DNA of 64,000 bases from Patescibacteria group bacterium. Lineage in GTDB: Bacteria; Patescibacteriota; Patescibacteriia; Magasanikbacterales; GWA2-37-8. The notes below the pieces were generated by a model. That model searched no databases. It saw only the letters and a list, made by a program, of their open reading frames with translations, and was not told where the DNA came from. This document shows positions 2,280-57,785 of this stretch, in pieces; the stretch's first letter is position 1, and every line of letters starts with the position of its first letter. The stretch is from the NCBI GenBank assembly GCA_041661385.1, contig JBAZUP010000001.1, forward strand, positions 576,907 to 640,906, given 5' to 3'. Both the position numbers and the translations under genes were made by a program.

Positions 2280-3047
2280 ATGCCCGTAATCGAACTTCCT
2301 GAAGTTAAAGAAAAGAATTTTTCCAAATTGGAAAAGGATTTTGGCATTACTTTTAAAAACAAAGATTTGCTCGTGCAAGCATTCATTCATCGCTCTTACC
2401 TCAACGAGCACCACGACTTTCCGCTTCCTCACAATGAACGCCTTGAATTTCTTGGTGATGCCGTACTTGAATTGATTGTTACAGAATTTCTTTTTGAACA
2501 ATACGGTAACCCAGAAGGCGAACTCACCAACTGGCGCGCCGCTCTTGTAAACGCCAAAACTCTGGCTTCAATTGCTTATGAGCTTGGCCTTGAACCGTAT
2601 CTTTTTCTAAGCCACGGCGAAGCCAAAGACACTGGAACCAAAGCGCGCGACTATATCATGGCGAATACCATTGAAGCTTTTCTCGGTTCAATTTATCTTG
2701 ATCAGGGCTATACCATAGCTAAACAATTTATCACTCGCTGGGTAATAGTTAAATTACCGGAAATTTTAGAAAACGGTTTGTATTTGGATGCAAAAAGCCG
2801 CCTTCAAGAATCTTCACAAGAATTACTTGGCATAACTCCAACCTATAAAGTTCTGCATGAAGAAGGACCTGATCACAACAAAACTTTTCGAGTCGGGGTT
2901 TATTTTGAAAAAGAATTGATTGCGACCGGTGAAGGAACAAGCAAACAAGAAGCCCAAACTGATGCCGCGGAACAGGCAGTTAAAATAAAAGGATGGAAGG
3001 GTCCGAAAATTTCTATTATAAAAAGAAATAACGGTGATCCGTTATAA
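2280..3047 (+). CDS. rnc: Ribonuclease III
   Basis: The ERLEFLGDAVLELIVTEFLF catalytic signature is present, with a C-terminal dsRBD. Confidence 0.9.
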   Translation: MPVIELPEVKEKNFSKLEKDFGITFKNKDLLVQAFIHRSYLNEHHDFPLPHNERLEFLGDAVLELIVTEFLFEQYGNPEGELTNWRAALVNAKTLASIAYELGLEPYLFLSHGEAKDTGTKARDYIMANTIEAFLGSIYLDQGYTIAKQFITRWVIVKLPEILENGLYLDAKSRLQESSQELLGITPTYKVLHEEGPDHNKTFRVGVYFEKELIATGEGTSKQEAQTDAAEQAVKIKGWKGPKISIIKRNNGDPL

Positions 3048-3052
3048 AAAAC

Positions 3053-3125
3053 GGGTCGGTAGCTCAGCTGGTAGAGCAGAGGCCTCTTAAGCCTAAGGTC
3101 CCGGGTTCGATCCCCGGCCGACCCA
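3053..3125 (+). tRNA. tRNA-Lys (anticodon CTT)
   Basis: Cloverleaf: acceptor GGGTCGG/CCGACCC, T-arm CCGGG-TTCGATC-CCCGG, anticodon loop CTCTTAA. Confidence 0.8.
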
Positions 3126-3169
3126 CATAAAAGAAAACTCCACGTAAGTGGGGTTTTTCTTTTATGTAG

Positions 3170-3400
3170 TTTGTCTGGGAGCGAACAGAAGATGGAAAGA
3201 AACGGAGTTTCTTTCTTGCTGAGGAAAGCCCACGAAAACCCGAAGGTTTTCGTGAAGCGAACGAAGTGAGCGCGTGAGATCCCCAACGACCCACATATAT
3301 GGAAACCCTTTTGTGGGAGGACGAGCGAAGCGAGGACGACGGAGATCCCCGACTCACTCGTGAGATCCCCAATTACAAACATAGCAGATCACATATATTC
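3170..3400 (+). repeat. tRNA-linked conserved element, copy A (about 110-nt structured core plus duplicated tRNA-Lys 3' end and extra GAGATCCCC repeats)
   Basis: The core 'gatggaaagaaac...cccacgaaaacccgaaggttttcgtg...gtgagcgcgtgagatcc' is about 90% identical to copy B at 5861-5965. It is followed by 'gatccccaacgacccacata', a near-copy of the tRNA-Lys T-loop-to-3' end. Confidence 0.7.
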
Positions 3401-3445
3401 TTTTATCCTCTTTTCTCTGTTATAATATCCATTGCAAAGATACAT

Positions 3446-4537
3446 ATGAATAATTATAAAAATAAAATTTCAATTCTCGCTACGTTTATTGTTTTGCTTT
3501 CGTTCGGAAACAATGTAGCGGCAAAAACAATCATTAACCCCGCACCCAAAAAAATTACCAAAGAATTCGTCCGAATTTTTTATTGTCAAAACGGAAAAAA
3601 AGCCAGTGACTCACTCGCAAAAAATTATCGCTCGGTCGATATTATCGCCCCTCAGGCCTATTCAATCACTGCAACCGGCACCCTCATTGGCGGAGTTGAC
3701 CCTAAAATCACTGCCATAGCGACAAAACGCAAAATAAAAATAATGCCGCTTATCGTTAACAAAGGTTTTAGTAGCCGCGCCGCTGCAGATTTTTTTGATG
3801 ATATAGAACACCAACAGTCGGCTGTGAACGCCATGGTGGATGAGGGAATAAAAAATTCTTATTGGGGCTGGCAAGTAGATTTTGAACAAGTAAATATTTC
3901 TTATCAAAAACAATTTTCAGATTTTGTCGCAATACTCGGAGATGCATTGCATAAAAACGGCATGACGGTCAGCGTTGCGGTAATTGCTCAGACCTCTACT
4001 GAACCAACCGACTATAAAGGTGACTATTGGAATAAGTTCATCGGCGTTTATGATTACGCCGCGCTTGCCTCCAGTTCAGATTTCATTAGTCTAATGTCCT
4101 ACGATGACCCGGGTTCGACCGGCCCCGCAACCAGGTACACCTGGCTCAAACAAGTTTTAAATTTTTCTCTCAAATATATTCCTCCAGAAAAAATATCTAT
4201 TGGCATACCATTATACTACTGGCGATGGAATGATTCGACCGGCAAAAGAGTCGGTACTGGTACTTACACGCAGTTATTACAAAAAATGAATCAGTATAAT
4301 ATGAAACGCGGTTATGACCCGAAAGAAGCCGCCTCATATATGCGTTACCGTAGTAATAAAATGACTTACACGATTTGGTATGAAAATAGCAAAAGCGTCG
4401 CAAAAAAAATTGATTTAATCAAAGAAAATGGTTTGCATGGTTTTTCAGCGTGGGCACTTGGGCAAGAAGTGCCAAATTTTCACGAAGCGATTTTTTCAAA
4501 TAAATATTTGGTTGATCGCTCATTGGTGATGCGATAA
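3446..4537 (+). CDS. Secreted glycoside hydrolase family 18-like protein (start at the internal ATG before the signal peptide)
   Basis: Signal peptide MNNYKNKISILATFIVLLSF. A WGWQVDFE motif resembles the GH18 DxxDxDxE catalytic motif. The ORF-track start at 3299 is upstream of the signal peptide and unlikely. Confidence 0.55.
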   Translation: MNNYKNKISILATFIVLLSFGNNVAAKTIINPAPKKITKEFVRIFYCQNGKKASDSLAKNYRSVDIIAPQAYSITATGTLIGGVDPKITAIATKRKIKIMPLIVNKGFSSRAAADFFDDIEHQQSAVNAMVDEGIKNSYWGWQVDFEQVNISYQKQFSDFVAILGDALHKNGMTVSVAVIAQTSTEPTDYKGDYWNKFIGVYDYAALASSSDFISLMSYDDPGSTGPATRYTWLKQVLNFSLKYIPPEKISIGIPLYYWRWNDSTGKRVGTGTYTQLLQKMNQYNMKRGYDPKEAASYMRYRSNKMTYTIWYENSKSVAKKIDLIKENGLHGFSAWALGQEVPNFHEAIFSNKYLVDRSLVMR

Positions 4538-4593
4538 AAAATCACTAGTCTTAACTACTTGCGCGATATTTCTTTATACTGATCCTATTTAGA

Positions 4594-4628
4594 AATAAAA
4601 AAATACAACCTACATGAGGTTGTATTTT
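4594..4628. terminator. Bidirectional rho-independent terminator
   Basis: Hairpin 'aaaaatacaacctacatgaggttgtatttttt' flanked by A/T runs. Confidence 0.6.
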
Positions 4629-4745
4629 TTCAGGTCTCCATCATTATATCCGCAAAATATTGTGAACATAATGATAGTGTGGAGACCTGACAGTACGGTC
4701 TCCACACTTTTTTAGCGTGTGAAGCTATACTGCTAGGCTACTGCC

Positions 4746-5519
4746 CTAGTGACAGCCGAAACAGGCTGACTTGAAGGCCGGGCTCACGTCGATCACGCCG
4801 TTGCCGTGCAGAGACGGAACGGTGCTGGTCAAAACGCCCGTGCAGTAGGTGTAAGGAGCGCAACTGGTGACGAGGCCACCCGAGGTATTCACGAAGCTCG
4901 GATAGCCGCCGGAGACGTAGGCGCCGGTCACGCCAGGGTGACAGAGCTGGCAAGCGTTTCCGTTCGGAGTGAACGGGAAAGCATGCCGGCCGCTGTGCCA
5001 CGCGGGGATGGTACCATCGGCGAGCCTCGCCGGGATGCTGTGACAGGCCGAGCAGGTTGCAGAGCCGGTCGCGTACCACGAAGGCGAAACACCGCCAGAA
5101 GGACCGCCGTAAGCGACGGTATTCTGCACGGGCTCGCCGTCACCACCCTGCATCCAGTAGGAGAAGGTCCCCGCAGGAATGCTGTGGCAGCCCACGTTGG
5201 AGCAGGTCTTGTCGACCGCGTTGAACGTCGGCCGAGGCAGGCTCGGGTTGTAGGCGGTGCTGGTCGAATCGAAGACGAGACGGCCGGCGACCTTGTGGCA
5301 GACGGAGCAGCTGTACCGATCGTGCTTCTGGTGCGCGCCAGTGGGCAGGCACCCCGGATCGCCGTCGAAACAGTCGGCGTGATCGGCCATGAGGGCCTGG
5401 GGGCCGGCGATCGTCGCCGGAGTCGCAGAAGACGCCTCTTCCGCCGGGGCAGTCGCATCGACACCGCAGGCAGACAGCAGGAGCAATGCCATGAGTCCAA
5501 GCGCAGAAAGGAACTTCAT
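4746..5519 (-). CDS. Putative multiheme c-type cytochrome lipoprotein in a compositionally foreign island (about 65% GC)
   Basis: Lipoprotein signal MKFLSALGLMALLLLSAC. Motifs CSVCH, CSACH, CQLCH and CFGCH plus CSNVGCH are present. GC content is far above the flanks. Confidence 0.5.
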   Translation of the reverse strand: MKFLSALGLMALLLLSACGVDATAPAEEASSATPATIAGPQALMADHADCFDGDPGCLPTGAHQKHDRYSCSVCHKVAGRLVFDSTSTAYNPSLPRPTFNAVDKTCSNVGCHSIPAGTFSYWMQGGDGEPVQNTVAYGGPSGGVSPSWYATGSATCSACHSIPARLADGTIPAWHSGRHAFPFTPNGNACQLCHPGVTGAYVSGGYPSFVNTSGGLVTSCAPYTYCTGVLTSTVPSLHGNGVIDVSPAFKSACFGCH

Positions 5520-5524
5520 TCGAA

Positions 5525-5597
5525 CCTCCCAAAAGCGTGTACTTCAACCACCATGGTTGAAGCCGAGCATTATATCATTTTTAGGCCATTTTGTCAA
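5525..5597 (-). promoter_or_regulatory. Perfect consensus sigma70 promoter, palindromic operator and SD for the GC-rich gene
   Basis: On the minus strand: TTGACA (5597-5592), 17 nt, TATAAT (5574-5569), palindrome cttcaaccatggtggttgaag (5562-5542), GGGAGG (5530-5525), ATG at 5519. Confidence 0.55.
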
Positions 5598-5750
5598 TAG
5601 TTTCAAAAAAAGGCCACCTAATGCTATAATCTTGATTTTTCTCTTAAAACATGATAAAGTTGGCATATTCACCGCCCCTATTTTCAAGTGAAATGAGCGA
5701 AATGAATTTATTCATTTCCGAATGAACGAAGAAAATACGGCAGCGCAGCT

Positions 5751-5822
5751 GCCCCTATATTTCAATGGATAGAATAACAGGCTTCGAACCTGTAGATGGG
5801 AGTTCGATCCTCTCTGGGGGCA
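5751..5822 (+). tRNA. tRNA-Arg (anticodon TCG)
   Basis: Acceptor GCCCCTA/TGGGGGC, anticodon stem ACAGG/CCTGT with loop CTTCGAA, T-arm GGGAG-TTCGATC-CTCTC. Confidence 0.75.
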
Positions 5823-5860
5823 CAAAATAAAACTGACCTTTGTGGTCTGTTTTATTTTAT

Positions 5861-6022
5861 CTTGAGGATTGAACTGAAGATGGAAAGAAACGAAGTCTCT
5901 TTCTTGTTGAGGAAAGCCCACGAAAACCCGAAGGTCTTCGTGAAAGCGAACACAGTGAGCGCGTGAGATCCTCTCTGGGGGCACAAAATAAAACTGATCT
6001 TAATGGTCAGTTTTATTTTATT
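5861..6022 (+). repeat. tRNA-linked conserved element, copy B (core plus exact duplicate of tRNA-Arg T-stem 3' strand, acceptor 3' strand and trailer hairpin)
   Basis: 'gatcctctctgggggcacaaaataaaactga' at 5966-5996 repeats the tRNA 3' end and terminator seen at 5805-5838. The core is homologous to copies A and C. Confidence 0.75.
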
Positions 6023-6202
6023 CATATTTGGTAAATTGAGATTAAAAAAATGAAATTTTTTTGAAATATTTCATTAAAAATATTTTTTTATCTCCTTTCA
6101 TCAACAACTAATGATGCTGTGCATAACTTTACCTCTTACTATTTCAATATTTCGTCATTACATATATAATATTATCGAGGTCGAAAACTTTTACATCGAT
6201 GC

Positions 6203-6280
6203 TTGTCATGTAAAATTTTCTCTAATAATATTTCGCGTTAGCGAATTACAATTGTATCCGCTCGGATACAAATGAAGGGA
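6203..6280 (+). promoter_or_regulatory. Promoter (TTGTCA, 17 nt, TAATAT) plus 9-bp inverted-repeat operator (ttgtatccg ctc ggatacaa)
   Basis: Read directly upstream of the small ORF at 6293. The palindrome lies between the promoter and the RBS. Confidence 0.4.
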
Positions 6281-6292
6281 GGTGCCAACCAT

Positions 6293-6379
6293 ATGGCCAA
6301 AAAGAAAAAGAAGGTAGTAAAGCGTAAGAAAGTAGTCGCCAAGAAAAAGAAAAAAGGCGGCAAAAAGAAAAAACGTTAA
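6293..6379 (+). CDS. 28-aa lysine-rich peptide (MAKKKKKVVKRKKVVAKKKKKGGKKKKR)
   Basis: GGGAGG RBS 8 nt upstream, and a rho-independent terminator 'aaaaaatctcctgcaagggagatttttt' immediately after. It is too short for the ORF track. Confidence 0.5.
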   Translation: MAKKKKKVVKRKKVVAKKKKKGGKKKKR

Positions 6380-6427
6380 ATGAAAAAATCTCCTGCAAGG
6401 GAGATTTTTTATTATTGAAATATTACT

Positions 6428-7708
6428 TTAGTTGGTTTTTCTAACCTTTTTACCATTTTCGAGTACGCTAATCTTCCCATAAACTCCATCATACCCCGGA
6501 GTAACATTAACTAGGCCAGAACGCATATTTTTAATGCCTAAAGTAATGTTTTTATCACTTACAATTTTATCAATTTTAGCTAAATCTTCATAAAGTAAAA
6601 CCGAAAATTCGCTACCGAGCTTAAGCAACATATTTCGGTATTCGAGTTCAACTTTTTTACTGGCTTTGCCAACTTCAAACGCGTTGGCAATAATTTCACG
6701 AAGCGGAACAATATATCGATGTGAAATAAACTTGCCCAAAATTTTATTTTCTGACCGATCGGCAAGTTTTTCTATCCGATTTAGAACCCCGACGGTAAGT
6801 TTCTTTTTGCAAACCGGACAAATTTCTTTACAATGAATTGTTTCAGACGGTTTGAGTGATACGTTGCAGGTCTTATGACCATCATGATAATACATCCCCT
6901 CTTCGGGATAAAATTCTATTGTATAAAGAAATTGTTTTTTATCGCCGGATCTAATTTTTTTCCAAAGTGAGTCGTAAGAAACTTCATTTTCATTTTTAAA
7001 AGCGATAACATTTGCCTCTCGGCCTAAATTTTGTAAACTGTGCGCATCTGAATTTGATACTAGGGCAATTTTATCCAGCTTACTAATTCGGCGGTTCATG
7101 GTCGGATCACTAGATAATCCGGTTTCAATAGCAAAAATATTTGGCGTTAATTCTTCAAAACATTCCTCAAGAGAATCATACCCGGATTTTGATCCGAAAA
7201 CTGCATACCATGGCGTCCAAGCATGAGCGGGAATTACTACTATTCTTTTATCAATACCAAGACAAATTTCAACAATGTTTTTTGCGGTAAGTCCCATCAT
7301 CGGCCGCCCGTCAGAACGCAAATTTACCCCATGTTCTTCAAGCTTTTTGTTAAATCTTTCAGCAATTTCTAAGCTGGGCACAAAAATTAAAAGGTGTATT
7401 CGCCTTACCTTATCGCGGTGTTTATAAATACAAGATATTTCTGTGCCAATAATAAATTTAGTTCTACTTTCACTATTTTTTAAACTCAGTAATCCACCCC
7501 CATCTTCCTTTAGCTCTTTTTTTATCAATGAAAACCAACCCGGATGAGTAAAATCCCCGGTCGAAACAATATTGATTCCTTTTTCCTCACATACCTTCGC
7601 TATCTTTGGCAATTCTAAATCTTTAGAACAAGCCCGAGCAAACTTCGAATGTATATGAAGATCAATGATTTTTTCAATCATGCTATGTTTCTTTAACTGA
7701 CTTTGCAA
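6428..7708 (-). CDS. PHP-domain protein, endonuclease Q-like (TIGR00375-type)
   Basis: N-terminal DLHIHS PHP motif, internal CPVCKKK zinc-finger, C-terminal GYDGVYG. Confidence 0.45.
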   Translation of the reverse strand: MQSQLKKHSMIEKIIDLHIHSKFARACSKDLELPKIAKVCEEKGINIVSTGDFTHPGWFSLIKKELKEDGGGLLSLKNSESRTKFIIGTEISCIYKHRDKVRRIHLLIFVPSLEIAERFNKKLEEHGVNLRSDGRPMMGLTAKNIVEICLGIDKRIVVIPAHAWTPWYAVFGSKSGYDSLEECFEELTPNIFAIETGLSSDPTMNRRISKLDKIALVSNSDAHSLQNLGREANVIAFKNENEVSYDSLWKKIRSGDKKQFLYTIEFYPEEGMYYHDGHKTCNVSLKPSETIHCKEICPVCKKKLTVGVLNRIEKLADRSENKILGKFISHRYIVPLREIIANAFEVGKASKKVELEYRNMLLKLGSEFSVLLYEDLAKIDKIVSDKNITLGIKNMRSGLVNVTPGYDGVYGKISVLENGKKVRKTN

Positions 7709-9517: not shown

Positions 9518-10427
9518 AAATGCCGGCTGGCAGCAATCTTTCTCCCTCTTTTTCCTTAATAGTTAATTCCCCCACCTCTACCTTGCCGCCATATGCTTTG
9601 AACAAAGTTTCCAAATTATTTTTGTATGCCAAGGCTGAATAACCGGCCGCATAACCATTGATAAGAAAAAATAGCGGCTGTTTTGATAAGACCTTCTTAC
9701 ATTCTTCGACAAAAGGTAAAAAACTTTTTTCAATTTTCCAGAGCTCACCTTTTGGCCCATGCCCAAATGATGGCGGATCCATAATAATTCCATCGTACAA
9801 CTTCCCACGCTTCACTTCGCGCTGCACAAATCTAAAAGCATCATCTAATATCCAGCGAATCGGTTTATCTTTTAACCCGGAAATTTCCGCATTTTCTCTA
9901 CCCCAACCTATTGCCGCTTTTGAACCGTCGACATGACACACCTCGGCTCCGGCTTTGGCGCAGGCGAGAGTTGCCCCACCCGTATAGCCAAATAGATTCA
10001 AAACTGAAACCGGCCGTCCTGAATTTTTTATTTTTTCTTCCAGCCAAAGCCAATTACCGACTTGTTCCGGAAAAATTCCGGTATGTTTAAATGCCGAAAG
10101 CTTAACCCACATTTTCAATCCGCCAATTTCAACCTGCCACTTTTCCGCAATCTTGCCTTTAGTACTCCAATTGGCGCTTACACTGACACGCTTAAAAAAA
10201 GCATTAGCCTTTTCCCATTCCGCAACCGATAACTTTTTTGGCCACAAGGCCTGCGGGTCGGGCCTCGCAATCAAAACATCGGCATAGCGTTCCAGCTTTT
10301 CGCTTTCGCCGCTATCAACCAGTTCATAATCTTTTCCCGGCTCAGTAGTTATTATTTTATATTCACTCATATTATTTTCCGATATATTCAATATCGCTTT
10401 CATCTGCCCGGCGCAAACCTTCACCAC
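9495..10427 (-). CDS. Class I SAM-dependent rRNA methyltransferase (RlmI/RlmK-like)
   Basis: LNLFGYTGGATLA SAM-binding motif with a PUA-like N-terminus. Confidence 0.65.
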   Translation of the reverse strand: MVKVCAGQMKAILNISENNMSEYKIITTEPGKDYELVDSGESEKLERYADVLIARPDPQALWPKKLSVAEWEKANAFFKRVSVSANWSTKGKIAEKWQVEIGGLKMWVKLSAFKHTGIFPEQVGNWLWLEEKIKNSGRPVSVLNLFGYTGGATLACAKAGAEVCHVDGSKAAIGWGRENAEISGLKDKPIRWILDDAFRFVQREVKRGKLYDGIIMDPPSFGHGPKGELWKIEKSFLPFVEECKKVLSKQPLFFLINGYAAGYSALAYKNNLETLFKAYGGKVEVGELTIKEKEGERLLPAGIFARWSSV

Positions 10428-11100
10428 TATTCATTTCTTCAAACGCTTGGGCGACGAGACCTGGTGTACGGGCAATGATGAAAAAACCATCAATCAAATT
10501 TTGATCAAAACCCATATCAAGCAGTATTGCTGCATTTGCGCCGTCCATGTTCAAAGGCAGTTGTTTCGAAGAGGTTTTGTTTAATTCTTCCTTAATTTTT
10601 AAGGCAAATTTACAATATTTACCAAAAAATCCGTTTTCTTCGGCGATTTTTAAGAGCGCTTCGGCTCGGTTATCTACCTTTAATACTTTATGACCATACC
10701 CTGAAATATAAATCTTTCTTTTCTTAAAACTCGCAAGCAAGGTAGCTAAATCTTTTTCATCAATGTGCTCCACAAAAAATTTTGCGGCTGCGCCAAGCGC
10801 TCCTCCATGCCTTGAACCACCCAAAGCCAAAACACCGGCTGCAACCGAACTATAAAGCGAAGTATTCGTCGACGCAGTAATACGAGTAACTAGCGCCGAA
10901 GCTGAACCAGGCCCATGGTCAATCATCATGGCAACCATTGCGTTCATCATTTTTGTTTCCTTTGCGCTTGGTAATTCGCCTTTTAAGACCAACCAAATAA
11001 CTTCAGTAAAACTTTTCTCAAGCGCAAGTTTTTCCTGACTCTGTCCGCGAATTATCTCTTTACCATCATTGACGTTTGTTATCGCAGTTTTCCATTTCAT
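10372..11100 (-). CDS. Citrate synthase-like domain protein (citryl-CoA lyase / ATP-citrate lyase C-terminal domain-like)
   Basis: GGSRHGGALG resembles the citrate-synthase HGGA active-site motif. Only the small (C-terminal) CS domain is present. Confidence 0.55.
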   Translation of the reverse strand: MKWKTAITNVNDGKEIIRGQSQEKLALEKSFTEVIWLVLKGELPSAKETKMMNAMVAMMIDHGPGSASALVTRITASTNTSLYSSVAAGVLALGGSRHGGALGAAAKFFVEHIDEKDLATLLASFKKRKIYISGYGHKVLKVDNRAEALLKIAEENGFFGKYCKFALKIKEELNKTSSKQLPLNMDGANAAILLDMGFDQNLIDGFFIIARTPGLVAQAFEEMNSGEGLRRADESDIEYIGK

Positions 11101-11121
11101 ATTATTTATATTTAGTTCAAT

Positions 11122-12027
11122 TTATTTATTATAAGGCCTAACCAATTCTACCAAGTCTTCATACTTTTCCGCAATCATTACTCCAGCCGAACGCAGCGCC
11201 GCTTCCTTATCTTTGGCGCCCTGCCCACGCCCGACAATTGCTCCAGCATGACCAATATTCATTCCTTCCGGAAACAATGAGGCAAATTTACCGCCGATAT
11301 ATACAGCAAGCGGTTTAGTATATTCTTTATTTTCGATTAATTTTACAATTTCAAATTCATAACTTCCGCCGTGCTCTCCAAAAATTACAACCGCTTTTGT
11401 CTGTTCATCTTTCTCAAATAACCGAAGTAAATCGGCATAAATTGTACCGACTAATAAATCACCACCCACATGTACTGCCGCACTCTGACCCATGCCCGCT
11501 TGGCGAATTTGCCAGGATAGCTCGTTGGTCATACCACCTGAGCGAGAAATAACTCCAATACTGCCTGGCTTAAATATCTCTTCTACTAATGGACCTCCTA
11601 CCACTCCGATTCTGCCTACCCCTGGAACAATCAAACCAAGCGAACTCGGACCGACAACTTGAATATTTTTTTCTTTAGCGGCGGCAAGAAAATACGCGGT
11701 ATCTTTAATCGGAACGCGTTCAGCCATCACATTAATTAATTTAATATCATTTTTTATTGCTTCCAGCACCGCATCCTTCACCGCGAAAGGCGGAACATAT
11801 ACCGCCGATGTATTTAGTTCCGGAAATTTTTCTTTTGCTTCATCAATCGAATTAAAAATTGGTTTTCCCTCTACTTCTTGCCCGCCTTTTTTTGGTGTGA
11901 CACCACAAACAACTTCCGTATGATAATCAAGCATTGCTTTGGCAGCCTTGGCACCTTCCTTGCCAGTCATGCCTTGTACTATTACCTTAGTTTTTTTTGA
12001 AATTAAAATTGACATATTATTTACCAA
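11122..12027 (-). CDS. Succinyl-CoA synthetase alpha-like subunit (CoA-binding, phosphohistidine GHAGA)
   Basis: SucD-like Rossmann/CoA-ligase motifs; the active-site His is in NIGHAGAIV. Confidence 0.75.
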   Translation of the reverse strand: MVNNMSILISKKTKVIVQGMTGKEGAKAAKAMLDYHTEVVCGVTPKKGGQEVEGKPIFNSIDEAKEKFPELNTSAVYVPPFAVKDAVLEAIKNDIKLINVMAERVPIKDTAYFLAAAKEKNIQVVGPSSLGLIVPGVGRIGVVGGPLVEEIFKPGSIGVISRSGGMTNELSWQIRQAGMGQSAAVHVGGDLLVGTIYADLLRLFEKDEQTKAVVIFGEHGGSYEFEIVKLIENKEYTKPLAVYIGGKFASLFPEGMNIGHAGAIVGRGQGAKDKEAALRSAGVMIAEKYEDLVELVRPYNK

Positions 12028-13162
12028 TCATTTCCGCAAGTACTACCGCGGTCGCGCTCATTGGCGTGTCTTTATCAAAATATTTTAATTTTAAATTATT
12101 ACGCGCAGCACAATCTTCCATGATTTTTTTTCCTTCAGAATCAAATGGCCCGGCGCGGCGCACAACAATCGGATATTTCGGTTTCAGCTCATCGAGCGCA
12201 TCCACAATACCTTGAAATGTTTCTGCGATATTTGTAAAATTTGCAACACCGCCCGCAATCCACAAGCCCCTTAAGCCGGGTTTTGATAAAACAATTTTTA
12301 CCAGATTGTAAACTTTTTCCCGCGGTGGATTACCGGAATATTCCGTATAATTGGCAGGTTTACAACCGGCCTGAATCAAAGCATCCATGTTTGAAATACT
12401 GGCTCCGCCTCCTGAAAAAAGAATTGCCACATCTCCATCCATTTCAATATATTTTCCTGCCGTACCACGGTAATAATTGGCGCCTTCATCAATTTTTGTA
12501 ACCGCTATTTCTCGCTCGGTCGGCAATCGCCCCATCATTGTACGTGGCTCAAACTTTTGCCAGGCATCATGCCTAAAAAAAGCATCTTCATCAAGCGCAA
12601 CCTTGGCATCGGCTGCCACATATTTTCCTTCAGAAGTTAAAATAAGCGGATTAATTTCCATTAATCTTGCATCTTCCGATAAAAAACATTTCCAAAGCGG
12701 CTCTGCGAAAATAAAATTTTCAGTAACTTGCTCAGACCTAATATCTAATGGTATTTTTTTTATTTTTTCCGGCGTAACATCTTCTATATCAATTCCACCG
12801 ACAGCGCTAAATATCATTACCGGCTGTTTGATGTTTGTATCGTAAGTAATAGAAATATATTGTTCGGAAACAATTTGCAGTCGCTCTTCAATTAAAACCG
12901 CGGCTACATACTGACCCAAAATATTGATTCCAAACATTTCTTCAGTTATTTTTTTTGCTTCTTCTTTAGAAGAAGCAAACTTTATACCATTATTTTTTCC
13001 CCGTTTTCCAGATAAAATTTGCGCCTTTACTGCCACTTCTTTAACCCCCAATGATTCATAGGCTGCTTCAGCATTTTCACCACGCCGAACCACCACCCCT
13101 TTCGGGATAGTAATGCCATATTTTTCAAATATTTTTTTTCCTTCCCACTCGTAAAGATTCAT
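12017..13162 (-). CDS. Succinyl-CoA synthetase beta-like subunit (ATP-grasp)
   Basis: SucC-like ATP-grasp N-terminal half plus CoA-ligase C-terminal half; overlaps the alpha-like gene by 11 nt. Confidence 0.75.
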   Translation of the reverse strand: MNLYEWEGKKIFEKYGITIPKGVVVRRGENAEAAYESLGVKEVAVKAQILSGKRGKNNGIKFASSKEEAKKITEEMFGINILGQYVAAVLIEERLQIVSEQYISITYDTNIKQPVMIFSAVGGIDIEDVTPEKIKKIPLDIRSEQVTENFIFAEPLWKCFLSEDARLMEINPLILTSEGKYVAADAKVALDEDAFFRHDAWQKFEPRTMMGRLPTEREIAVTKIDEGANYYRGTAGKYIEMDGDVAILFSGGGASISNMDALIQAGCKPANYTEYSGNPPREKVYNLVKIVLSKPGLRGLWIAGGVANFTNIAETFQGIVDALDELKPKYPIVVRRAGPFDSEGKKIMEDCAARNNLKLKYFDKDTPMSATAVVLAEMIGK

Positions 13163-22089: not shown

Positions 22090-22213
<124 letters not shown>

Positions 22214-22299: not shown

Positions 22300-25825
<3,526 letters not shown>

Positions 25826-26109: not shown

Positions 26110-26422
26110 AGAAAAAAAGAGAACCGCGCAAAGCGGCTCTCAGCAAAAAATTTGCTTGTCAACCGTTTGGATACTTCGAGTAAGAATTTGTAGTAATGTG
26201 TAACATTGCTGTTAAGTTACTGAACTTACCCAGAGGTCCAAATGGTTGCGATTGCACCAAATCGTTGGACGTGGTCCCTAATTTATTAGGGATAATCGTG
26301 AGCTAGATTTTATCAAAAAAAATTCACCCTGTCAAGGGCGATTATGTGGATAACTAAGAGAAAAAAACACGATTATTACTTTCGACAAAAAGCATTATAT
26401 CACAAATAGTCCTTTTTGTCAA
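26110..26422 (-). ncRNA. Candidate independent small-RNA transcription unit (promoter to terminator, no credible ORF)
   Basis: On the minus strand: TTGACA (26422-26417), 17 nt, TATAAT (26399-26394). A second TTGACA, 17 nt, TAAAAT lies about 90 nt downstream. The unit has nested stem-loops and ends at the terminator gagagccgctttgcgcggttctc + TTTTTTT (about 26140-26110). Confidence 0.35.
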
Positions 26423-35048: not shown

Positions 35049-35504
35049 CTATTTATTAAGTGCCCTGTTCACAACATCATCAAGTGTTTGTCCGCCGCTG
35101 CCGGCATTGGTACCTAAATTTCTGCCGAGCGCCAAATTGGTTATCAAAATAGTTATTCCGTAAGCACTAATAATAATTAACAGACCAATAGTAGAATTTG
35201 CAATAGTTTTTTTTGATGAAGCAATTTGCTCGTCATTTCCCTGCGCCGTCATCCATTTGAAACCCGCAAACGCAATTAGCACAAATAAAACGGTACCGAC
35301 CAGAGATAAAAGCAATCTAATCATTTGTGAGGCGATTAGTCTTGGGTCTTTTGGTTCACTAAATCCAGCTCCAGTAGTTCCACCGGCGTGTCCAAGCTGA
35401 TTAAAAGATTCTGTGAGCCATCCTTGAGCGCTGGCTTTTGGTACCAATAGGAACAATGCTAACCATAGAACGGTTGTTATTAGAATTGTTTTCTTAAAAT
35501 TCAT
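35049..35504 (-). CDS. TrbC/VirB2-like pilin paralog 1 (FKWMTAQGNDEQI)
   Basis: Signal peptide, hydrophilic spacer, TM1, WMTAQGN-E loop, TM2, and a Gly/Asn-rich tail. Confidence 0.55.
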   Translation of the reverse strand: MNFKKTILITTVLWLALFLLVPKASAQGWLTESFNQLGHAGGTTGAGFSEPKDPRLIASQMIRLLLSLVGTVLFVLIAFAGFKWMTAQGNDEQIASSKKTIANSTIGLLIIISAYGITILITNLALGRNLGTNAGSGGQTLDDVVNRALNK

Positions 35505-35510
35505 ATGATT

Positions 35511-35903
35511 TTAAAATGATGTCGCTTGAGCAGTGTAAATCATGACAAAAGCAGTGATGCTATAAGCTGCGACGACTACAACCATACCAATTGTAGCGGT
35601 AGTAATAATATTTTTGGCTTTAGCTACTTGTTCTTCATTGCCCTGCGCAGTCATCCAAAGAAAACCAGAATAAACCATTAGAGCAAAGAAGATTGTACCA
35701 ACAAATGTTAAAACTATTTTAATTATCCGTCCGATTGTTTCAGAAAGGGTATATTGAGTTGTGTTTATACTAAAACCAGCATATCTCGCAATATTTTGCG
35801 CCGTTCCATTGTATCCTACCCCGATGTCTGGCGCGGCGAAAACCGGCACAATAAAAAATAATGAAATCATTAATGACAGAAAAAGGAAAAATTTATTTTT
35901 CAT
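35511..35903 (-). CDS. TrbC/VirB2-like pilin paralog 2 (FLWMTAQGNEEQV)
   Basis: Same architecture as paralog 1; 130 aa. Confidence 0.55.
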   Translation of the reverse strand: MKNKFFLFLSLMISLFFIVPVFAAPDIGVGYNGTAQNIARYAGFSINTTQYTLSETIGRIIKIVLTFVGTIFFALMVYSGFLWMTAQGNEEQVAKAKNIITTATIGMVVVVAAYSITAFVMIYTAQATSF

Positions 35904-35915
35904 ATTACATTAATT

Positions 35916-36416
35916 CTATGGAGCTGTCATACAACAAATCAAACTACTTGGGCAATCTGTTCCGGGCGCTTCAATTTCGAAATTCAGAGTACAGGAAGAT
36001 TTACATGTTCCACCATATTGACCTGTACAAGAAACGGATGTGTCACCGGTTGAACTGCTAATTCTTCCAGTTACAAAAGCGGTTATTGCATAGGCCGCCA
36101 TAACAACAACTAAACCAATTACGGCCTGTTGTATCATGCTTTTTGCATGGGATACTTTTTCTTCATTACCCTGCGCAGTCATCCAGGTAATTCCCGCCCA
36201 GACCGTTAACACCAAAAAAATTGTTCCAACTAACGATAACAGTCCGCTTATTACTGTTCCGACCGACATACTAAGATCGCCAGACAGTCCAACTTTACTT
36301 CCTTCGCCAACGGCAGATTTTAAATTATTTAATCCGTTTGTTAAAGGCGCGGCCTCAACAAAATTTTGAACTAGAAACAAACTACCGAGAGCCGCAATTA
36401 TTAAAACTTTTTTCAT
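35916..36416 (-). CDS. TrbC/VirB2-like pilin paralog 3 with a Cys-rich C-terminal tail (probable start at the internal MKKVLIIAAL)
   Basis: ITWMTAQGNEEKV motif and tail ...SCTGQYGGTCKSSCTLNFEIEAPGTDCPSSLICC. The ORF-track start at 36614 overlaps the upstream paralog. Confidence 0.5.
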   Translation of the reverse strand: MKKVLIIAALGSLFLVQNFVEAAPLTNGLNNLKSAVGEGSKVGLSGDLSMSVGTVISGLLSLVGTIFLVLTVWAGITWMTAQGNEEKVSHAKSMIQQAVIGLVVVMAAYAITAFVTGRISSSTGDTSVSCTGQYGGTCKSSCTLNFEIEAPGTDCPSSLICCMTAP

Positions 36417-36423
36417 ATAAAAA

Positions 36424-36975
36424 TTATTGACAAACACAAGTTGCAGAACCGTCTGCATCAACACAACTACCCGCTGTGTTGGACGCTGTAGTACAACTGC
36501 TATTAGTAACTCTGTTCGCACAAACCGCCTCACTACCGGAATTACAAACTGCCTGACTTGAGTTTCCCGTTTGTAAATTTGAAAAAATGAAATTTGTAAT
36601 TGCGTACGCAGCAAGAATCACAATAATTCCAATTGCTGCTGACTCGATGGTTTCTTTTGACTTGTCAATTTTTTCACTATTACCTCGCGCCGTCATCCAA
36701 TTAAAACCCGCATACAAAATCAAAAGGAAAAATACGATTCCAATTATCGACAAGACAATTTGAACAACCGAGCCAACCAACTCTGGTATAGCGTTTGGTC
36801 CGGCCTCAACTTCAGCAACCTTGGATGGCAAATAACAATCTTTTTTCCCCGAATCATTACAAGTCGCTTCTTGAGTCGCTTTCGTGCCATAATCAACGGC
36901 ATAACTATCTAAAGCCAATGAAAACCCGCCAAGCAAGACCAGAGCTAATAAGATTTTTCCAAAATTCTTTTTCAT
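36424..36975 (-). CDS. TrbC/VirB2-like pilin paralog 4 with a Cys-rich C-terminal tail (probable start at the internal MKKNFGKILL)
   Basis: FNWMTARGNSEKI motif and tail CNSGSEAVCANRVTNSSCTTASNTAGSCVDADGSATCVCQ. Confidence 0.5.
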   Translation of the reverse strand: MKKNFGKILLALVLLGGFSLALDSYAVDYGTKATQEATCNDSGKKDCYLPSKVAEVEAGPNAIPELVGSVVQIVLSIIGIVFFLLILYAGFNWMTARGNSEKIDKSKETIESAAIGIIVILAAYAITNFIFSNLQTGNSSQAVCNSGSEAVCANRVTNSSCTTASNTAGSCVDADGSATCVCQ

Positions 36976-37033
36976 ATATATTTTATCGAAATCGCGTCGT
37001 GAATCATTGATTGCTGCATTTTCAAACCCGCTT

Positions 37034-37435
37034 CTAATATGTTGCATTAACCAAATTCGTAATCACAAAATATGTAATCGAATATGAAACTAAAATTACC
37101 GCGAGTCCGATTACCCCGGTATATATTCGTCTTTTCGCTTGACTTACTTTTTCGTCGTTACCGGCCGAAGTCATCCATTCATATCCACCATACAACATTA
37201 TAACCAAAAAAATAATACCCACCATGCTGAGTGCAAGGCGGATCGTTTTGGCGGTAGTTATGCGAACATCCGTATCGGCAAAACCTGCAGTGCGCGGATA
37301 ACCAACACCAAGCGGATCAGCGCTGCCGGTCAGTAAAGATTGAGCAGAAACCGGCTGAAGATATACAGCTGCTCCGAATACAACCAAAAAAAGACCGATA
37401 ATTAGTCCCGTTATATTTTTATTTCGTAAATTCAT
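37034..37435 (-). CDS. TrbC/VirB2-like pilin paralog 5 (YEWMTSAGNDEKV)
   Basis: Same architecture; 133 aa. Confidence 0.55.
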   Translation of the reverse strand: MNLRNKNITGLIIGLFLVVFGAAVYLQPVSAQSLLTGSADPLGVGYPRTAGFADTDVRITTAKTIRLALSMVGIIFLVIMLYGGYEWMTSAGNDEKVSQAKRRIYTGVIGLAVILVSYSITYFVITNLVNATY

Positions 37436-37514
37436 AGCAGTTGTGTTTTCTATCTGCTAAAAGACACAATCCACTACCCAATCCGCGCAATTGCGCGGAT
37501 TGGGAGTTGATCTA

Positions 37515-37895
37515 CTAAGCTGTAGCTGTAACCAATTGATTGACGACAAAGTTTGCAAGACCGTAAGCTGATAGAATTATAGCGAGACCGATAACGGCCG
37601 CGATCATAATTTTCTTAGCTGTACCGACTTGTTCGTCGTTACCACCTGCAGTCATCCAAAGGAAGCCTGCGTAAAGCATCAATACTACTGTTACGATACC
37701 AAGGAACGCCATGGCGGCGCGAATGATTCTGGCGACAGTCGTACGGATGTCGGTTGTTGATAATCCGAGAGCCGGAGTAAGTTCACTGGTATTCAATAGC
37801 TCTGTTGGTGTGAGAGATTGAGCTAAAGCTGGGGTGAAAGTGAACAAGTTCAAACCGACCGCGAATATTGTTGCTAGTTTCTGAAAAGTTTTCAC
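37515..37895 (-). CDS. TrbC/VirB2-like pilin paralog 6 (FLWMTAGGNDEQV); probable GTG start after a GGAGG RBS
   Basis: The signal peptide begins at VKTFQKLATIFAVG. The upstream part of the 166-aa ORF-track frame has no signal-peptide character. Confidence 0.5.
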   Translation of the reverse strand: MKTFQKLATIFAVGLNLFTFTPALAQSLTPTELLNTSELTPALGLSTTDIRTTVARIIRAAMAFLGIVTVVLMLYAGFLWMTAGGNDEQVGTAKKIMIAAVIGLAIILSAYGLANFVVNQLVTATA

Positions 37896-38052
37896 AATTT
37901 CACCTCCCTTCCAAAATAGTTTTCTGACATATTTTATATTTTGACTCCTTCTCTGTCCATCACAAGCAGTTATACTTTTTAGTGAACTAAAACGTATAAT
38001 CCGCTTCCCAACCATGGTTTTATCAAAGGTTGGGAGCAGTTTAATTTTATTT

Positions 38053-38439
38053 TTATGGAGCAGTCGTGGCTGTCACTAATGAATTAATGACAAAATTCGC
38101 AATACCATACGCGGACAAAATAATTGCGAGACCGATGATGCCGGAGAAGATCCATTTTTTGGCTTCGCCGACTTTTTCATCGTTACCGCCAGCAGTCATC
38201 CAGGTGAAACCTCCGATAAGAATGATTACTACAGCGATTATACCAAGCATTCCCATGGCAACGCGAATTATGCGAGCAATGGTAATACGGATATCTGAGT
38301 CAGAAAGACCGGTAGCTGTTTGAATTCCTGTTGGCATTAATTCTGAACTTTGCAAAACAGTTTGCGCGAGTACTGGACTTGCTGCCAGCATGGTGGAACC
38401 CATTGCAATTACCGTGACAAATTTTTGTATTTTATTCAT
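38053..38439 (-). CDS. TrbC/VirB2-like pilin paralog 7 (FTWMTAGGNDEKV)
   Basis: Same architecture; 128 aa. Confidence 0.55.
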   Translation of the reverse strand: MNKIQKFVTVIAMGSTMLAASPVLAQTVLQSSELMPTGIQTATGLSDSDIRITIARIIRVAMGMLGIIAVVIILIGGFTWMTAGGNDEKVGEAKKWIFSGIIGLAIILSAYGIANFVINSLVTATTAP

Positions 38440-38534
38440 AGTTTCACCCCCTTTCGACTTTGAAATTTCGACATACTATATAAATCGACTGCGTATATTA
38501 TATCACACCTCGTTTTCAGGTGCAATTTATTAGC

Positions 38535-38924
38535 CTAAACCGATCCAGTAGACAATACTGTGGTCAATGTATTTACCAAAATATAGCTAGAAAGCACTAA
38601 TACTACACCAATTATTGCCCACAACATCGTGCTAGTACCTTTCTCAACTTTCTCAGTATTCCCAGCCGATGTCATCCATTGAAAACCACCCCAAATCAGC
38701 ATTAAAAGCGCGAGCGACCCCAAGATTCCAAGCGCTCCTTTAATGATTGTTCCGATGATAACAGTTGCATCAACTTTACTGCCAAGTGGATTATCAAGGC
38801 AAACATCCCCCACTTTTGGTACATAACCGGTTTTAGGATTTGCCACACAGGTTGCTGCTGAAACTGAAGAAAAATTCATAAACAGAACAAGTCCCGACAT
38901 TAATAACAATAAAGCTTTTTTCAT
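38535..38924 (-). CDS. TrbC/VirB2-like pilin paralog 8 (FQWMTSAGNTEKV)
   Basis: Same architecture; 129 aa. Confidence 0.55.
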   Translation of the reverse strand: MKKALLLLMSGLVLFMNFSSVSAATCVANPKTGYVPKVGDVCLDNPLGSKVDATVIIGTIIKGALGILGSLALLMLIWGGFQWMTSAGNTEKVEKGTSTMLWAIIGVVLVLSSYILVNTLTTVLSTGSV

Positions 38925-38934
38925 ATTAAACTTA

Positions 38935-39333
38935 CTACTTCAATTTCAAAAACACAAAATCAATTGCCATATAACTTACAGACATTACCGAAACCCCTAG
39001 CGCCGCCCAAATAATTATATTCTTGGCTGTCGTAATTTTTTCAGAATTTCCACTGGCTGTCATCCAAATTACACCGCCATAAACTACGAGCAAAAACATT
39101 ATCGCCCCCATAAACATCATGAGAGCTTTAATTGCAAGACCGATTATCTCTTGCCCGCTTAAAATTTTATTTTCTTTATTTTTTGGAAGTTGATTTAATG
39201 CTTGCGCATCAGCTTTTATTTTAGTCATCACTTTTTCGGCATCTTGATTTGAAGTGGCAGCCCCCGCAAATGCCGGTGAAAAAATCGCCAGCGAACAAAT
39301 AAACAATAAAATAATTTTTTTTAATTTATTCAT
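38935..39333 (-). CDS. TrbC/VirB2-like pilin paralog 9 (VIWMTASGNSEKI)
   Basis: Same architecture; 132 aa. Confidence 0.55.
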   Translation of the reverse strand: MNKLKKIILLFICSLAIFSPAFAGAATSNQDAEKVMTKIKADAQALNQLPKNKENKILSGQEIIGLAIKALMMFMGAIMFLLVVYGGVIWMTASGNSEKITTAKNIIIWAALGVSVMSVSYMAIDFVFLKLK

Positions 39334-39337
39334 ACAA

Positions 39338-39943
39338 CTACTGATTTAATTTAAACTGCGTTTCAATACCTACCGCATTACCGACAAAAATTACAATTGC
39401 ATAACCGCCGAAAGCGATGATTAGACCCAGCACTGCCGCGACAATAATACCCTTACCCTGCGCGACTTTTTCGGCATTTCCTTGCGAAAGGATCAATACA
39501 AAACCACCATAAACAAAATACAATAAAGTAACACCGCCAATAATACCAAATAAATAACGAATGATGTTAAACATTAAAATTAAAAAAACCGTTATGTCTC
39601 TGCATTCACCAACTACATTTGTTTCGTTTACACACGCCGGAAGAAATGCCCCCCATTTTTGTCCTACGGTTTTATCGGGCGCTGTAGCTGTAGTGTTAGC
39701 TAAATTATTTTTTGCACTTACGCAATCATTTACTGTCGTCATCCAAGCACAACTGGTGTATTTTGCATTTTGAGAATTGTTAAAATCACAAACGTCTTGA
39801 GTTGCCACATCTAAACAGGTGGTGTCAACTGCATTTTTTCCAACACAGAAACATTGGGCAGCTGCATTTGCTTCTTTTTTGAAAATAAAAACAGAAACAA
39901 GAATTAGCGCTCCAAATATAAATATCTGTGTATTTTTTTTCAC
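39338..39943 (-). CDS. TrbC/VirB2-like pilin paralog 10 with a Cys-rich N-terminal domain (divergent loop LSQGNAEKV)
   Basis: Signal peptide, an 8-Cys region of about 100 aa, then the TM - SQGNAEKV - TM core. Confidence 0.45.
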   Translation of the reverse strand: MKKNTQIFIFGALILVSVFIFKKEANAAAQCFCVGKNAVDTTCLDVATQDVCDFNNSQNAKYTSCAWMTTVNDCVSAKNNLANTTATAPDKTVGQKWGAFLPACVNETNVVGECRDITVFLILMFNIIRYLFGIIGGVTLLYFVYGGFVLILSQGNAEKVAQGKGIIVAAVLGLIIAFGGYAIVIFVGNAVGIETQFKLNQ

Positions 39944-57305: not shown

Positions 57306-57785
57306 TCATGTTTTTGTATTTTCCTGTTTCAATGAAGAAAAGTATAACACAAAACCAACAACAATGAAAATATCCGCGAGGTTGATAACACCGTTAAAGA
57401 TCCGAATGTAATCAATTGTATGGTTATAAACCAATCGATCTGCTAAATTTGAAAATGCGCCCACCAAAATTAAAACCAAACCAAATTTTAAACGTCTATC
57501 TTTGCCATCCGATGGCGTTTTTTCATTTAAGTAAAAAAAGTACAAAACTGCGGCAATAATAAATACCGTAAGCGCTACCACAACAAATTTCGGCATCACA
57601 ATACCAAACGCAATTCCTTTATTATAAAAAGGCTCCCAACCAAAATTCTTCCCAATAAGCAGCGGCTGAATCCAGTTGTGCGCCGCTTGCCATTTTAAAA
57701 ATCGGTCAGAAATTAAAAAAACCCCGCCAAGCAGTACATACCTGAACAGGGTTTTAAAATACATATTTTTATACTTCCTGAACAA
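57306..57785 (-). CDS. lspA: Lipoprotein signal peptidase II
   Basis: NKGIAFG and FNLADIFI aspartyl-peptidase motifs, with four TM helices. Confidence 0.75.
   Translation of the reverse strand: MFRKYKNMYFKTLFRYVLLGGVFLISDRFLKWQAAHNWIQPLLIGKNFGWEPFYNKGIAFGIVMPKFVVVALTVFIIAAVLYFFYLNEKTPSDGKDRRLKFGLVLILVGAFSNLADRLVYNHTIDYIRIFNGVINLADIFIVVGFVLYFSSLKQENTKT

Follow-up and report, generated by a model that had tools for sequence, protein, structure and literature searches.

The 64-kb stretch of DNA analysed here (hereafter the window) carries one strongly guanine-plus-cytosine (GC)-rich islet. It is best read as a genuine gene, horizontally acquired long ago and kept by selection, that would encode a pentahaem cytochrome lipoprotein of the Geobacter/Anaeromyxobacter 'CxxxxCH/CxxCH' family in the genome of a Magasanikbacteria-like candidate phyla radiation (CPR) bacterium. 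The probability assigned to this reading as a whole is about 75%. An earlier note, made from the letters of this DNA, had proposed a putative multihaem c-type cytochrome in a CPR-like host, and both parts of that proposal hold. NCBI names the source 'Patescibacteria group bacterium', and the nearest named homologues of its RNase III belong to Candidatus Magasanikbacteria (73-76% identity). A CPR hallmark is seen in the 23S ribosomal RNA (rRNA) gene at 22309-25821 (minus strand), which at 3,513 nt is longer than its 2,925-nt model and thus holds about 590 nt of insertions.

Within the window, the open reading frame (ORF) at 4746-5519 on the minus strand is the sole strongly GC-rich island, with 64-66% GC against 41%. 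Measured in 300-bp intervals, GC runs at 0.57-0.66 across 4651-5550 and averages 0.412 outside the island (standard deviation 0.047, maximum 0.54), which places the island at z = 5.2 and confirms the jump described in the earlier note. Most of the contrast to the host is carried by codon position 3. The GC content at that position (GC3) is 0.78 in this ORF and 0.35±0.04 (range 0.29-0.45) in the 32 other genes of the window, giving z = 11.4 for a comparison that the same note had recommended. Composition and codon usage are both unlike those of the host, as would be expected of a horizontally acquired islet. The GC-rich portion is exactly one coding sequence (CDS), with host-type signals on either side. 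Opposite it lies a long plus-strand ORF, 4806-5600, which, like the out-of-frame minus-strand ORFs, matched no Pfam family. These extra frames fit the usual stop-poor frames of GC-rich DNA, and the data are consistent with the previous dismissal of the plus-strand ORF as an antisense artefact.

The gene is native and real and is not an assembly error. An identical protein occurs on three assemblies, consisting of a 20-kb NCBI contig (GCA_041666005.1), a 217-kb ENA contig and a 778-kb NCBI contig, and one NCBI locus (L001) matches the window at 99.96% over 13.3 kb with both junctions included. A second CPR lineage, known from JGI samples (loci L002 and L003), carries an orthologue that is 67% identical to the window protein in a global alignment (70-72% by BLASTP and in the family alignment) and has diverged by about 30% in nucleotides. 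In L002 this orthologue occupies the same slot, bounded by tRNA-Lys(CTT) next to the genes for RNase III, NusB and L32 and by tRNA-Arg(TCG) next to those for a PHP-like protein and malic enzyme. Its GC content is 0.60 against 0.37-0.42 for the flanks. The unit conserved between the window and L002 is a cassette of about 1 kb that extends from the -35 region (near 5603) to the T-tract of the terminator (near 4594). Upstream of the -35 region the two sequences are unrelated.

The predicted product begins with MKFLSALGLMALLLLSAC and contains four CxxCH motifs and one CxxxxCH motif in the order CSVCH, CSNVGCH, CSACH, CQLCH and a C-terminal CFGCH. These motifs and the lipobox LLLSAC, as named in the earlier note, were all found in the 257-residue translation. 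A search of 5.8 billion proteins returned 154 homologues, mostly full length and at 40-56% identity, and many of the full-length ones bear the JGI name of the TIGR01904 / PF09698 family. In two family alignments of 43 (A1) and 73 (A2) members, no Cys or His of the five motifs varies, and the invariant columns number 28-30. Further histidines are also retained: H63, H66, H175 and H179 are invariant in both alignments, and H238 is invariant in A1 and present in at least 90% of A2. Since these five additional conserved histidines provide one candidate distal axial ligand for each haem, all five haems are probably bis-His ligated, with the pairing of individual histidines and haems being one that we infer. 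The conservation of several haem motifs among homologues is expected of a multihaem c-type cytochrome, as is an export signal, here a Sec-type signal peptide with a lipobox read from the sequence. The Cys at the lipobox column is common to the homologues, and in the L002 orthologue the lipobox reads FLLTAC (LTAC in place of the LSAC of the window). LspA, the lipoprotein signal peptidase encoded elsewhere in the window, is relevant because the host needs signal peptidase II to process a lipobox.

By profile, the protein reaches the NCBIfam model TIGR01904 (CxxxxCH/CxxCH-domain c-type cytochrome) with 27.5 bits, only just meeting the cut-off of 27. The homologues returned carry no functional annotation past 'cytochrome c' or the family name; in GC-rich donor-type genomes they adjoin other multihaem cytochromes and NHL or paired-CxxCH proteins. 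A PDB sequence search with the single protein gave only spurious matches to designed 'Bagel' repeat proteins. With the family profile, the best PDB match was the dihaem cytochrome c NapB (PDB 1jni, 3ml1), in which the spacing of the last two haem motifs is weakly alike; at E = 0.25 the match is not significant and is no evidence of membership. Collectively, the family cut-off, the homologues and the invariant motifs support the assignment of the predicted protein as a multihaem c-type cytochrome lipoprotein that is foreign to the CPR genome.

Among 185,579 species-representative genomes, the family is found only in Geobacterales, Desulfuromonadales, Anaeromyxobacteraceae, Myxococcales, unclassified 'delta proteobacterium' metagenome-assembled genomes (MAGs) together with a few Nitrospirota, and in none of the CPR representatives. 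The earlier note had anticipated relatives of the Deltaproteobacteria/Myxococcota kind, and these are what the searches returned. The nearest non-CPR relatives, P0003 and P0024, are about 52% identical and lie on contigs of 67-77% GC, in agreement with the high-GC donor that had been suggested. A tree of the loci was built by neighbour-joining from motif-anchored ORFs. The two CPR copies pair in 94% of bootstraps, have P0003 as nearest neighbour and are nested among relatives of the Desulfuromonadota, Myxococcota and Nitrospirota type, although these neighbour-joining trees do not settle the deeper placement. The phylogeny, as given by neighbour-joining, is thus at odds with the position of the host. 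The predicted donor is of a high-GC 'deltaproteobacterial' type, either Myxococcota or Desulfuromonadota.

Codon positions record what has happened to the gene since its arrival. GC at the first and second positions is equal in donor-type and CPR genes (0.54-0.63), and therefore amino acid composition dictates part of the GC excess. GC3 is 0.87-0.92 in donor-type genes, 0.78 in the window copy, 0.69 in the L002 copy and about 0.35 in host genes. When polarised with three GC-rich outgroups, which bias the counts somewhat, the third-position changes on the two CPR branches number 57 from GC to AT and 3 from AT to GC (17 and 1 on the window branch, 40 and 2 on the L002 branch). This is nonetheless the direction that amelioration of a GC-rich import predicts. 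Active maintenance of a high GC3 was also considered and rejected, since the polarised substitutions show ordinary AT-ward decay.

The same pair of genomes dates the transfer and reveals selection. Between the window and L002, the cytochrome gene has a nonsynonymous divergence (dN) of 0.26 and a synonymous divergence (dS) of about 1.3, or a dN/dS of about 0.2, which indicates that it is under purifying selection. The neighbouring genes have a dN of 0.25 (PHP-like) and 0.22 (malic enzyme) with dS saturated, and since the dN of the cytochrome equals theirs, the gene is about as old as the split. For proportion, the PHP-like and malic-enzyme proteins are 70-73% identical between the two genomes and RNase III is 89% identical. 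Partial amelioration of GC3 and neighbour-like divergence therefore argue for an old transfer. The earlier note had listed a recent acquisition among its possible explanations, a view that fails because the transfer predates the split of lineages that have diverged to this extent. The two CPR copies, 67% identical overall, retain all 15 motif residues and the five additional histidines; by our own calculation, the chance of keeping 20 haem-ligand positions at that identity is 0.67^20, or about 3e-4.

Two further loci were encountered among the donor-type relatives. In a genome of 73-77% GC (L074, 6515-10666; also L075 and L076), the P0024 homologue is found two genes away from a phage-type integrase, and the run of small unannotated genes beside it suggests that the family may occur at the edge of integrated elements in donor-type bacteria. 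In one 'delta proteobacterium' MAG (L007, 6001-7700) there are two tandem copies of the insert-bearing subfamily to which the CPR genes also belong.

The expression signals that flank the CDS are AT-rich, unlike donor-type DNA. The promoter named in the earlier note proved to be a 12/12 match to the sigma-70 consensus and, in addition, has an extended -10 TG. An exact TTGACA-N17-TATAAT occurs twice in the 64 kb (expected number, 0.075). The other copy is about 570 nt upstream of the 23S rRNA gene and shares with the cytochrome promoter the TGa extension and the GCT that follows. Given this near-match to an rRNA promoter, the cytochrome would use a host promoter of the strongest class, and the gene is apparently strongly expressed. 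The L002 version reads TTGACT-17-TAAAAT with the TG. Upstream of the 23S rRNA gene there are in fact two tandem consensus promoters on the minus strand. One, at 26394-26422 (about 570 nt upstream), reads TTGACA-17-TGaTATAAT and is nearly the same as that of the cytochrome gene; the other, at 26304-26334 (about 480 nt upstream), reads TTGACA-17-TGaTAAAAT and is similar to the version in L002.

An inverted repeat begins 6 nt past the -10 hexamer, at approximately +1. Together with a flanking T it is identical in L002 at 23 of 23 nt, whereas the adjoining bases of the untranslated region (UTR) differ. It had been described as a perfect palindrome and an operator. The inverted repeat is confirmed, but its reverse complement differs at 3 central bases and it is therefore not perfect. 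A conserved repeat at the promoter and start is what a repressor operator would show, although that role is unproven. As RNA, the repeat would form a 10-pair stem. Two layouts are well known in bacteria, namely a promoter with a downstream operator (lac-type) and a 5'-terminal stem-loop that stabilizes the mRNA, and the repeat may be either. As in the lac-type layout, an inverted repeat of 21 bp follows a strong consensus promoter from about +1; here, unlike there, the operator role is predicted from sequence. Between the two lineages the repeat is invariant and does not covary, which favours, without proving, recognition of its specific sequence, be it as an operator or as an RNA-binding site. 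No regulator gene lies next to the repeat in the window. An exact search of metagenomes gave 11 matches, all of them coding and on unrelated contigs of 45-52% GC, and no additional copy of the cassette, from a collection that did not return the L002 contig. Downstream, the GGGAGG Shine-Dalgarno sequence reported earlier is present at 5530-5525, but with a spacing of 5 nt and not 6 nt.

At the other end of the gene, identity to L002 is 85% over 107 nt of the 3'UTR, compared with 70% for the CDS. With the alignment read directly, the stem at 4707-4677 shows two compensatory pairs and one G-U change relative to L002; the consensus structure from RNAalifold pairs this segment otherwise. The segment GGUCUCC (4687-4681) can pair with GGAGACC at either 4703-4697 or 4639-4633, and the two mutually exclusive pairings are both conserved in L002. 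Competing hairpins between the stop codon and the terminator could constitute an RNA switch. When 2900-6500 was searched against Rfam at E ≤ 1, the two transfer RNAs (tRNAs) were the only matches, and neither UTR of the cytochrome gene was assigned to a family. The terminator, which the convergent GH18 gene shares, could act in both directions. Table 1 lists the features of the locus.

Table 1. Coordinates of the cytochrome gene, its signals and associated features in the window.
Feature	Coordinates	Strand	Basis or remark
tRNA-Lys(CTT), slot boundary	3053..3126	+	Same tRNA bounds the slot in L002, L079 and L081
Intrinsic terminator (A-tract, 14-pair stem, T-tract)	4597..4630	-	Conserved in L002, which is without GH18
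Structured 3'UTR, hairpins 4707-4677 and 4689-4631	4631..4745	-	RNA fold -69.2 kcal/mol, z = -10.3 against shuffled
CDS, predicted pentahaem c-type cytochrome lipoprotein, 257 residues	4746..5519	-	GC 65%, GC3 0.78
Haem motif 5, CFGCH (C253, C256, H257), C-terminus	4749..4763	-	Invariant
Haem motif 4, CQLCH (C190, C193, H194)	4938..4952	-	Invariant
Haem motif 3, CSACH (C156, C159, H160)	5040..5054	-	Invariant
Haem motif 2, CSNVGCH (C106, C111, H112), the family-naming CxxxxCH	5184..5204	-	Invariant; inside the TIGR01904 / PF09698 match
Haem motif 1, CSVCH (C71, C74, H75)	5295..5309	-	Invariant in both alignments (43 and 73 sequences)
Signal peptide with lipobox LLLSAC (MKFLSALGLMALLLLSA then C; Cys18 predicted lipidated)	5466..5519	-	Read from the translation
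Shine-Dalgarno GGGAGG, 5 nt before ATG	5525..5530	-	Sequence and spacing identical in L002
Inverted repeat, 9-bp arms and 3-nt centre, CTTCAACCA-TGG-TGGTTGAAG	5542..5562	-	Unique in the window
Sigma-70-type promoter TTGACA-17-TATAAT with extended -10 TG	5569..5597	-	12/12 match; TTGACA 5597-5592, TATAAT 5574-5569
tRNA-Arg(TCG), other slot boundary	5751..5823	+	Same slot boundary in relatives
LspA, lipoprotein signal peptidase (signal peptidase II, Peptidase_A8)	57306..57785	-	Pfam PF01252, E = 4.8e-21

From these features the course of events can be read. A high-GC 'deltaproteobacterial' CDS entered the variable slot that tRNA-Lys and tRNA-Arg enclose, probably in a common ancestor of two or more CPR lineages, and is flanked there by an AT-rich, host-type promoter, inverted repeat, Shine-Dalgarno sequence, 3'UTR and terminator. 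Under purifying selection, the imported gene has since diverged at the rate of its neighbours while its third codon positions slowly decay to A/T. At the 5' end of the transcription unit, the inverted repeat may bind a repressor or form a stabilizing stem-loop in the mRNA. The product would leave by the Sec route, receive its lipid at Cys18 and be anchored on the membrane's outer face, with five haems covalently attached. In this position it could move electrons outside the cytoplasm, to or from either a soluble or mineral acceptor or the cytochromes of a partner or host cell.

The slot itself is a hot spot for accessory genes. A stretch of 94 nt upstream of tRNA-Arg (5627-5720) matches sister lineages that are free of the cassette. 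Between or beside the same two tRNAs, the sister lineages carry other cargo, consisting of a PMT_2 glycosyltransferase in L079 and a small ORF with an M15 peptidase in L081/L082, and no remnant of the cassette was found in either slot. The gene is therefore patchy among close relatives, as is typical of an islet, being present in the window and L002 and absent from L079 and L081/L082. What adjoins the cassette differs as well: a GH18 gene in the window, and in L002 an operon for an extracytoplasmic function (ECF) sigma factor instead. That operon (L002, 8243-9656, minus strand) comprises the ECF sigma factor and two small unannotated genes, is divergent from the cassette and is absent in the window lineage; the two small genes may encode an anti-sigma factor and a secreted protein.

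Two histories account most simply for this distribution. Either the gene was gained once, long ago, and then lost two or more times, or it passed early from one CPR lineage to another. The latter, in which the cassette moved laterally soon after the split by recombination in the tRNA-flanked slot, is rather unlikely. In its favour, the identities of flanking proteins put the window lineage outside (L081,(L002,L079)), while the gene is confined to the window and L002. The cassette is also self-contained, at 1 kb, and has different neighbours in these two genomes. However, its dN of 0.26 matches the 0.22-0.25 of the flanks, and any such transfer would be about as old as the split. Furthermore, no integrase, terminal or flanking repeat belonging to the cassette was found, and viral contigs yielded no carrier of the inverted repeat, of the cytochrome family or of a tRNA-linked mini-element seen near the slot.

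This mini-element, of about 110 bp, occurs twice (3168-3299 and 5861-6021, 92% identity), once after tRNA-Lys and once after tRNA-Arg, past each terminator hairpin. Beyond each copy, the 3' end of the respective tRNA is duplicated: on the Arg side, 5806-5860 recurs at 5967-6021 (55 bp, 92.7%), and on the Lys side, gatccccggccgacccacata recurs as gatccccaacgacccacata. The arrangement looks like an att-type target duplication by a very small insert. A mini-ORF within the element encodes MERNEVSFLLRKAHENPKVFVKANTVSA or MERNGVSFLLRKAHENPKVFVKRTK, and three of the four substitutions in the common part are synonymous. The two copies bracket the GH18 gene, the cytochrome gene and tRNA-Arg, and neither L002 nor viral contigs contain the element.

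A second group of alternatives accepts the transferred gene and disputes the function of its product. The protein may have been kept for a role other than electron transfer, such as the capture or storage of host-derived haem or metal, or as an adhesin for cytochrome filaments of a host. The gene stands without redox partners nearby, the host is probably episymbiotic with its many pilin genes, and an origin in lineages rich in extracellular cytochromes would fit a host-derived surface protein. However, conservation falls precisely on the residues of a bis-His multihaem cytochrome, and these are shared with the donor-type homologues, with no sign of a changed function, and such a role is distinctly unlikely. 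Very unlikely, too, is an orphan gene that survived transfer but cannot be matured, yields no working haem protein and is drifting to loss. An orphan would agree with the lack of maturation and haem genes in the roughly 100 kb surveyed, with the absence of the gene from two sister lineages and with the fact that CPR bacteria are usually without such systems (PMC7507113). It is at odds with a dN/dS of about 0.2 over a divergence with dS near saturation, with the retention of 20 of 20 haem-ligand positions, and with a promoter, inverted repeat, Shine-Dalgarno sequence and 3'UTR that are more conserved than the CDS.

The earlier note had offered three origins for the islet, of which only horizontal transfer survives. 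A chimera or contamination, in which a high-GC fragment was mis-joined into a CPR contig, would explain the sharp GC step and the occurrence of all other relatives in high-GC or 'deltaproteobacterial' genomes, but is virtually ruled out: its junctions should occur in one assembly and in no relative, whereas identical junctions recur in three assemblies, the L002 orthologue, from other samples, is syntenic and shares the AT-rich promoter, the inverted repeat and the 3'UTR, the GC-rich part coincides with a single CDS between host-type signals, and GC3 is intermediate and decaying towards A/T. Equally negligible is a designed insert, for although a 12/12 promoter, operator and GGGAGG driving a codon-foreign ORF recall the layout of a textbook construct, the TTGACA-17-TGaTATAAT-GCT form recurs in the promoter of the 23S rRNA in this window, and the natural L002 orthologue is about 30% diverged, with compensatory changes in its 3' hairpin when the alignment is read directly.

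Several observations weigh against an old, selected gene for a working pentahaem cytochrome, and they are best considered together. The Pfam model PF09698 (GSu_C4xC__C2xCH) scores 19.5, which is under its gathering threshold of 21.7. An AlphaFold2 model of the protein is weak (predicted local distance difference test 66.9), and a fold search with it matched nothing, leaving the assignment without structural support. The dS is near saturation and the tree is only neighbour-joining. Two sister lineages live without the gene, which is therefore dispensable, and the gene stands alone, unlike the cytochrome clusters of donor-type genomes. Most importantly, no genes for Ccm, CcsBA/ResBC, CcdA or haem synthesis or uptake were seen in the 64-kb window, 10 kb beyond it, L002, L004, L079 and L081, a survey of about 100 kb or roughly a tenth of a genome of about 0.8 Mb. 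The supply and attachment of haem is the weak link of the proposed mechanism. The evidence for selection speaks for a working protein, and a synthase elsewhere in the genome, or haem from a partner, would be expected.

The remainder of the window is of interest for the host. The 5S gene (22098-22204) adjoins the 23S rRNA gene, no 16S gene is nearby, and two ENA contigs break within the 23S rRNA gene. A tandem array of at least 10 small T4SS_pilin-family genes occupies 35049-39943 (minus strand), and beyond it lie a solute-binding protein and large surface proteins with PKD, Big_2, PA14 and LTD domains; with so many pilin genes, the lifestyle of the host is probably episymbiotic. Three adjacent genes at 10372-13162 (minus strand) have ATP-grasp_2/Citrate_bind, CoA-ligase and Citrate_synt domains. 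This trio, which lies by the malic enzyme, resembles an ATP-citrate lyase or citryl-CoA synthetase/lyase set and is unusual for a CPR genome.

That a gene with a promoter of rRNA grade has stayed under purifying selection since a deep split implies either that these cells obtain haem and attach it covalently or that the protein has an unrecognised use, and either outcome would widen the view of CPR activities at the cell surface. The donor lineage, in turn, could hint at the host of the CPR cell. One unlikely but attractive extension is that the cell is an episymbiont of a metal-reducing 'deltaproteobacterium', in which case the host-derived cytochrome, displayed at a high level on the cell surface, may plug into the extracellular electron-transfer network of the host, with haem scavenged from it. 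If so, the cell would gain or release electrons while having no respiratory chain itself, and the phylogeny of the donor would also point to the host. More generally, the locus offers a clean case of a foreign CDS with native expression signals, caught in the middle of amelioration.

Few precedents exist for such a protein in these bacteria, which are regarded as fermentative and host-dependent (PMC7507113). The earlier note had called a cytochrome in a CPR genome unexpected, and the literature agrees: electron transport chains are reported to be ancestrally absent from Patescibacteria, with oxygen reductases sporadically gained by horizontal transfer (PMC7507113), and the multihaem precedent is exceptional (PMC5220378). 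That precedent is 'Candidatus Parcunitrobacter nitroensis' of the Parcubacteria, whose multihaem c-type cytochromes belong to a co-located respiratory set (HAO, PetAB, SDH and others) judged not to be recent transfers (PMC5220378). The two cases are alike in placing multihaem cytochromes in a CPR genome; here, a single isolated gene with a clear foreign signature has no respiratory partners in view. The oxygen reductases are also alike in being redox proteins nested among non-CPR phyla (PMC7507113), but they are membrane oxidases from another donor group, unlike the extracytoplasmic multihaem cytochrome predicted here. No report of a TIGR01904-type family in CPR bacteria was found in the literature. 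The closest resemblance is to the TIGR01904 / PF09698 cytochromes of Geobacter, Geomonas and Anaeromyxobacter, many of which are 40-56% identical to the window protein over nearly the full length and share its CxxxxCH and then CxxCH motifs, C-terminal CFGCH, lipoprotein-type N-terminus and invariant Cys/His pattern. The window protein is a short form, without the N-terminal domain of the Geobacter forms of about 300 residues. Unlike the Geobacter and Anaeromyxobacter members, its gene stands alone with partly ameliorated codon usage, in an AT-rich CPR host and not a metal-reducing 'deltaproteobacterium'. By homology, then, the predicted protein is of the TIGR01904 type, and it is the host and the setting that are new.

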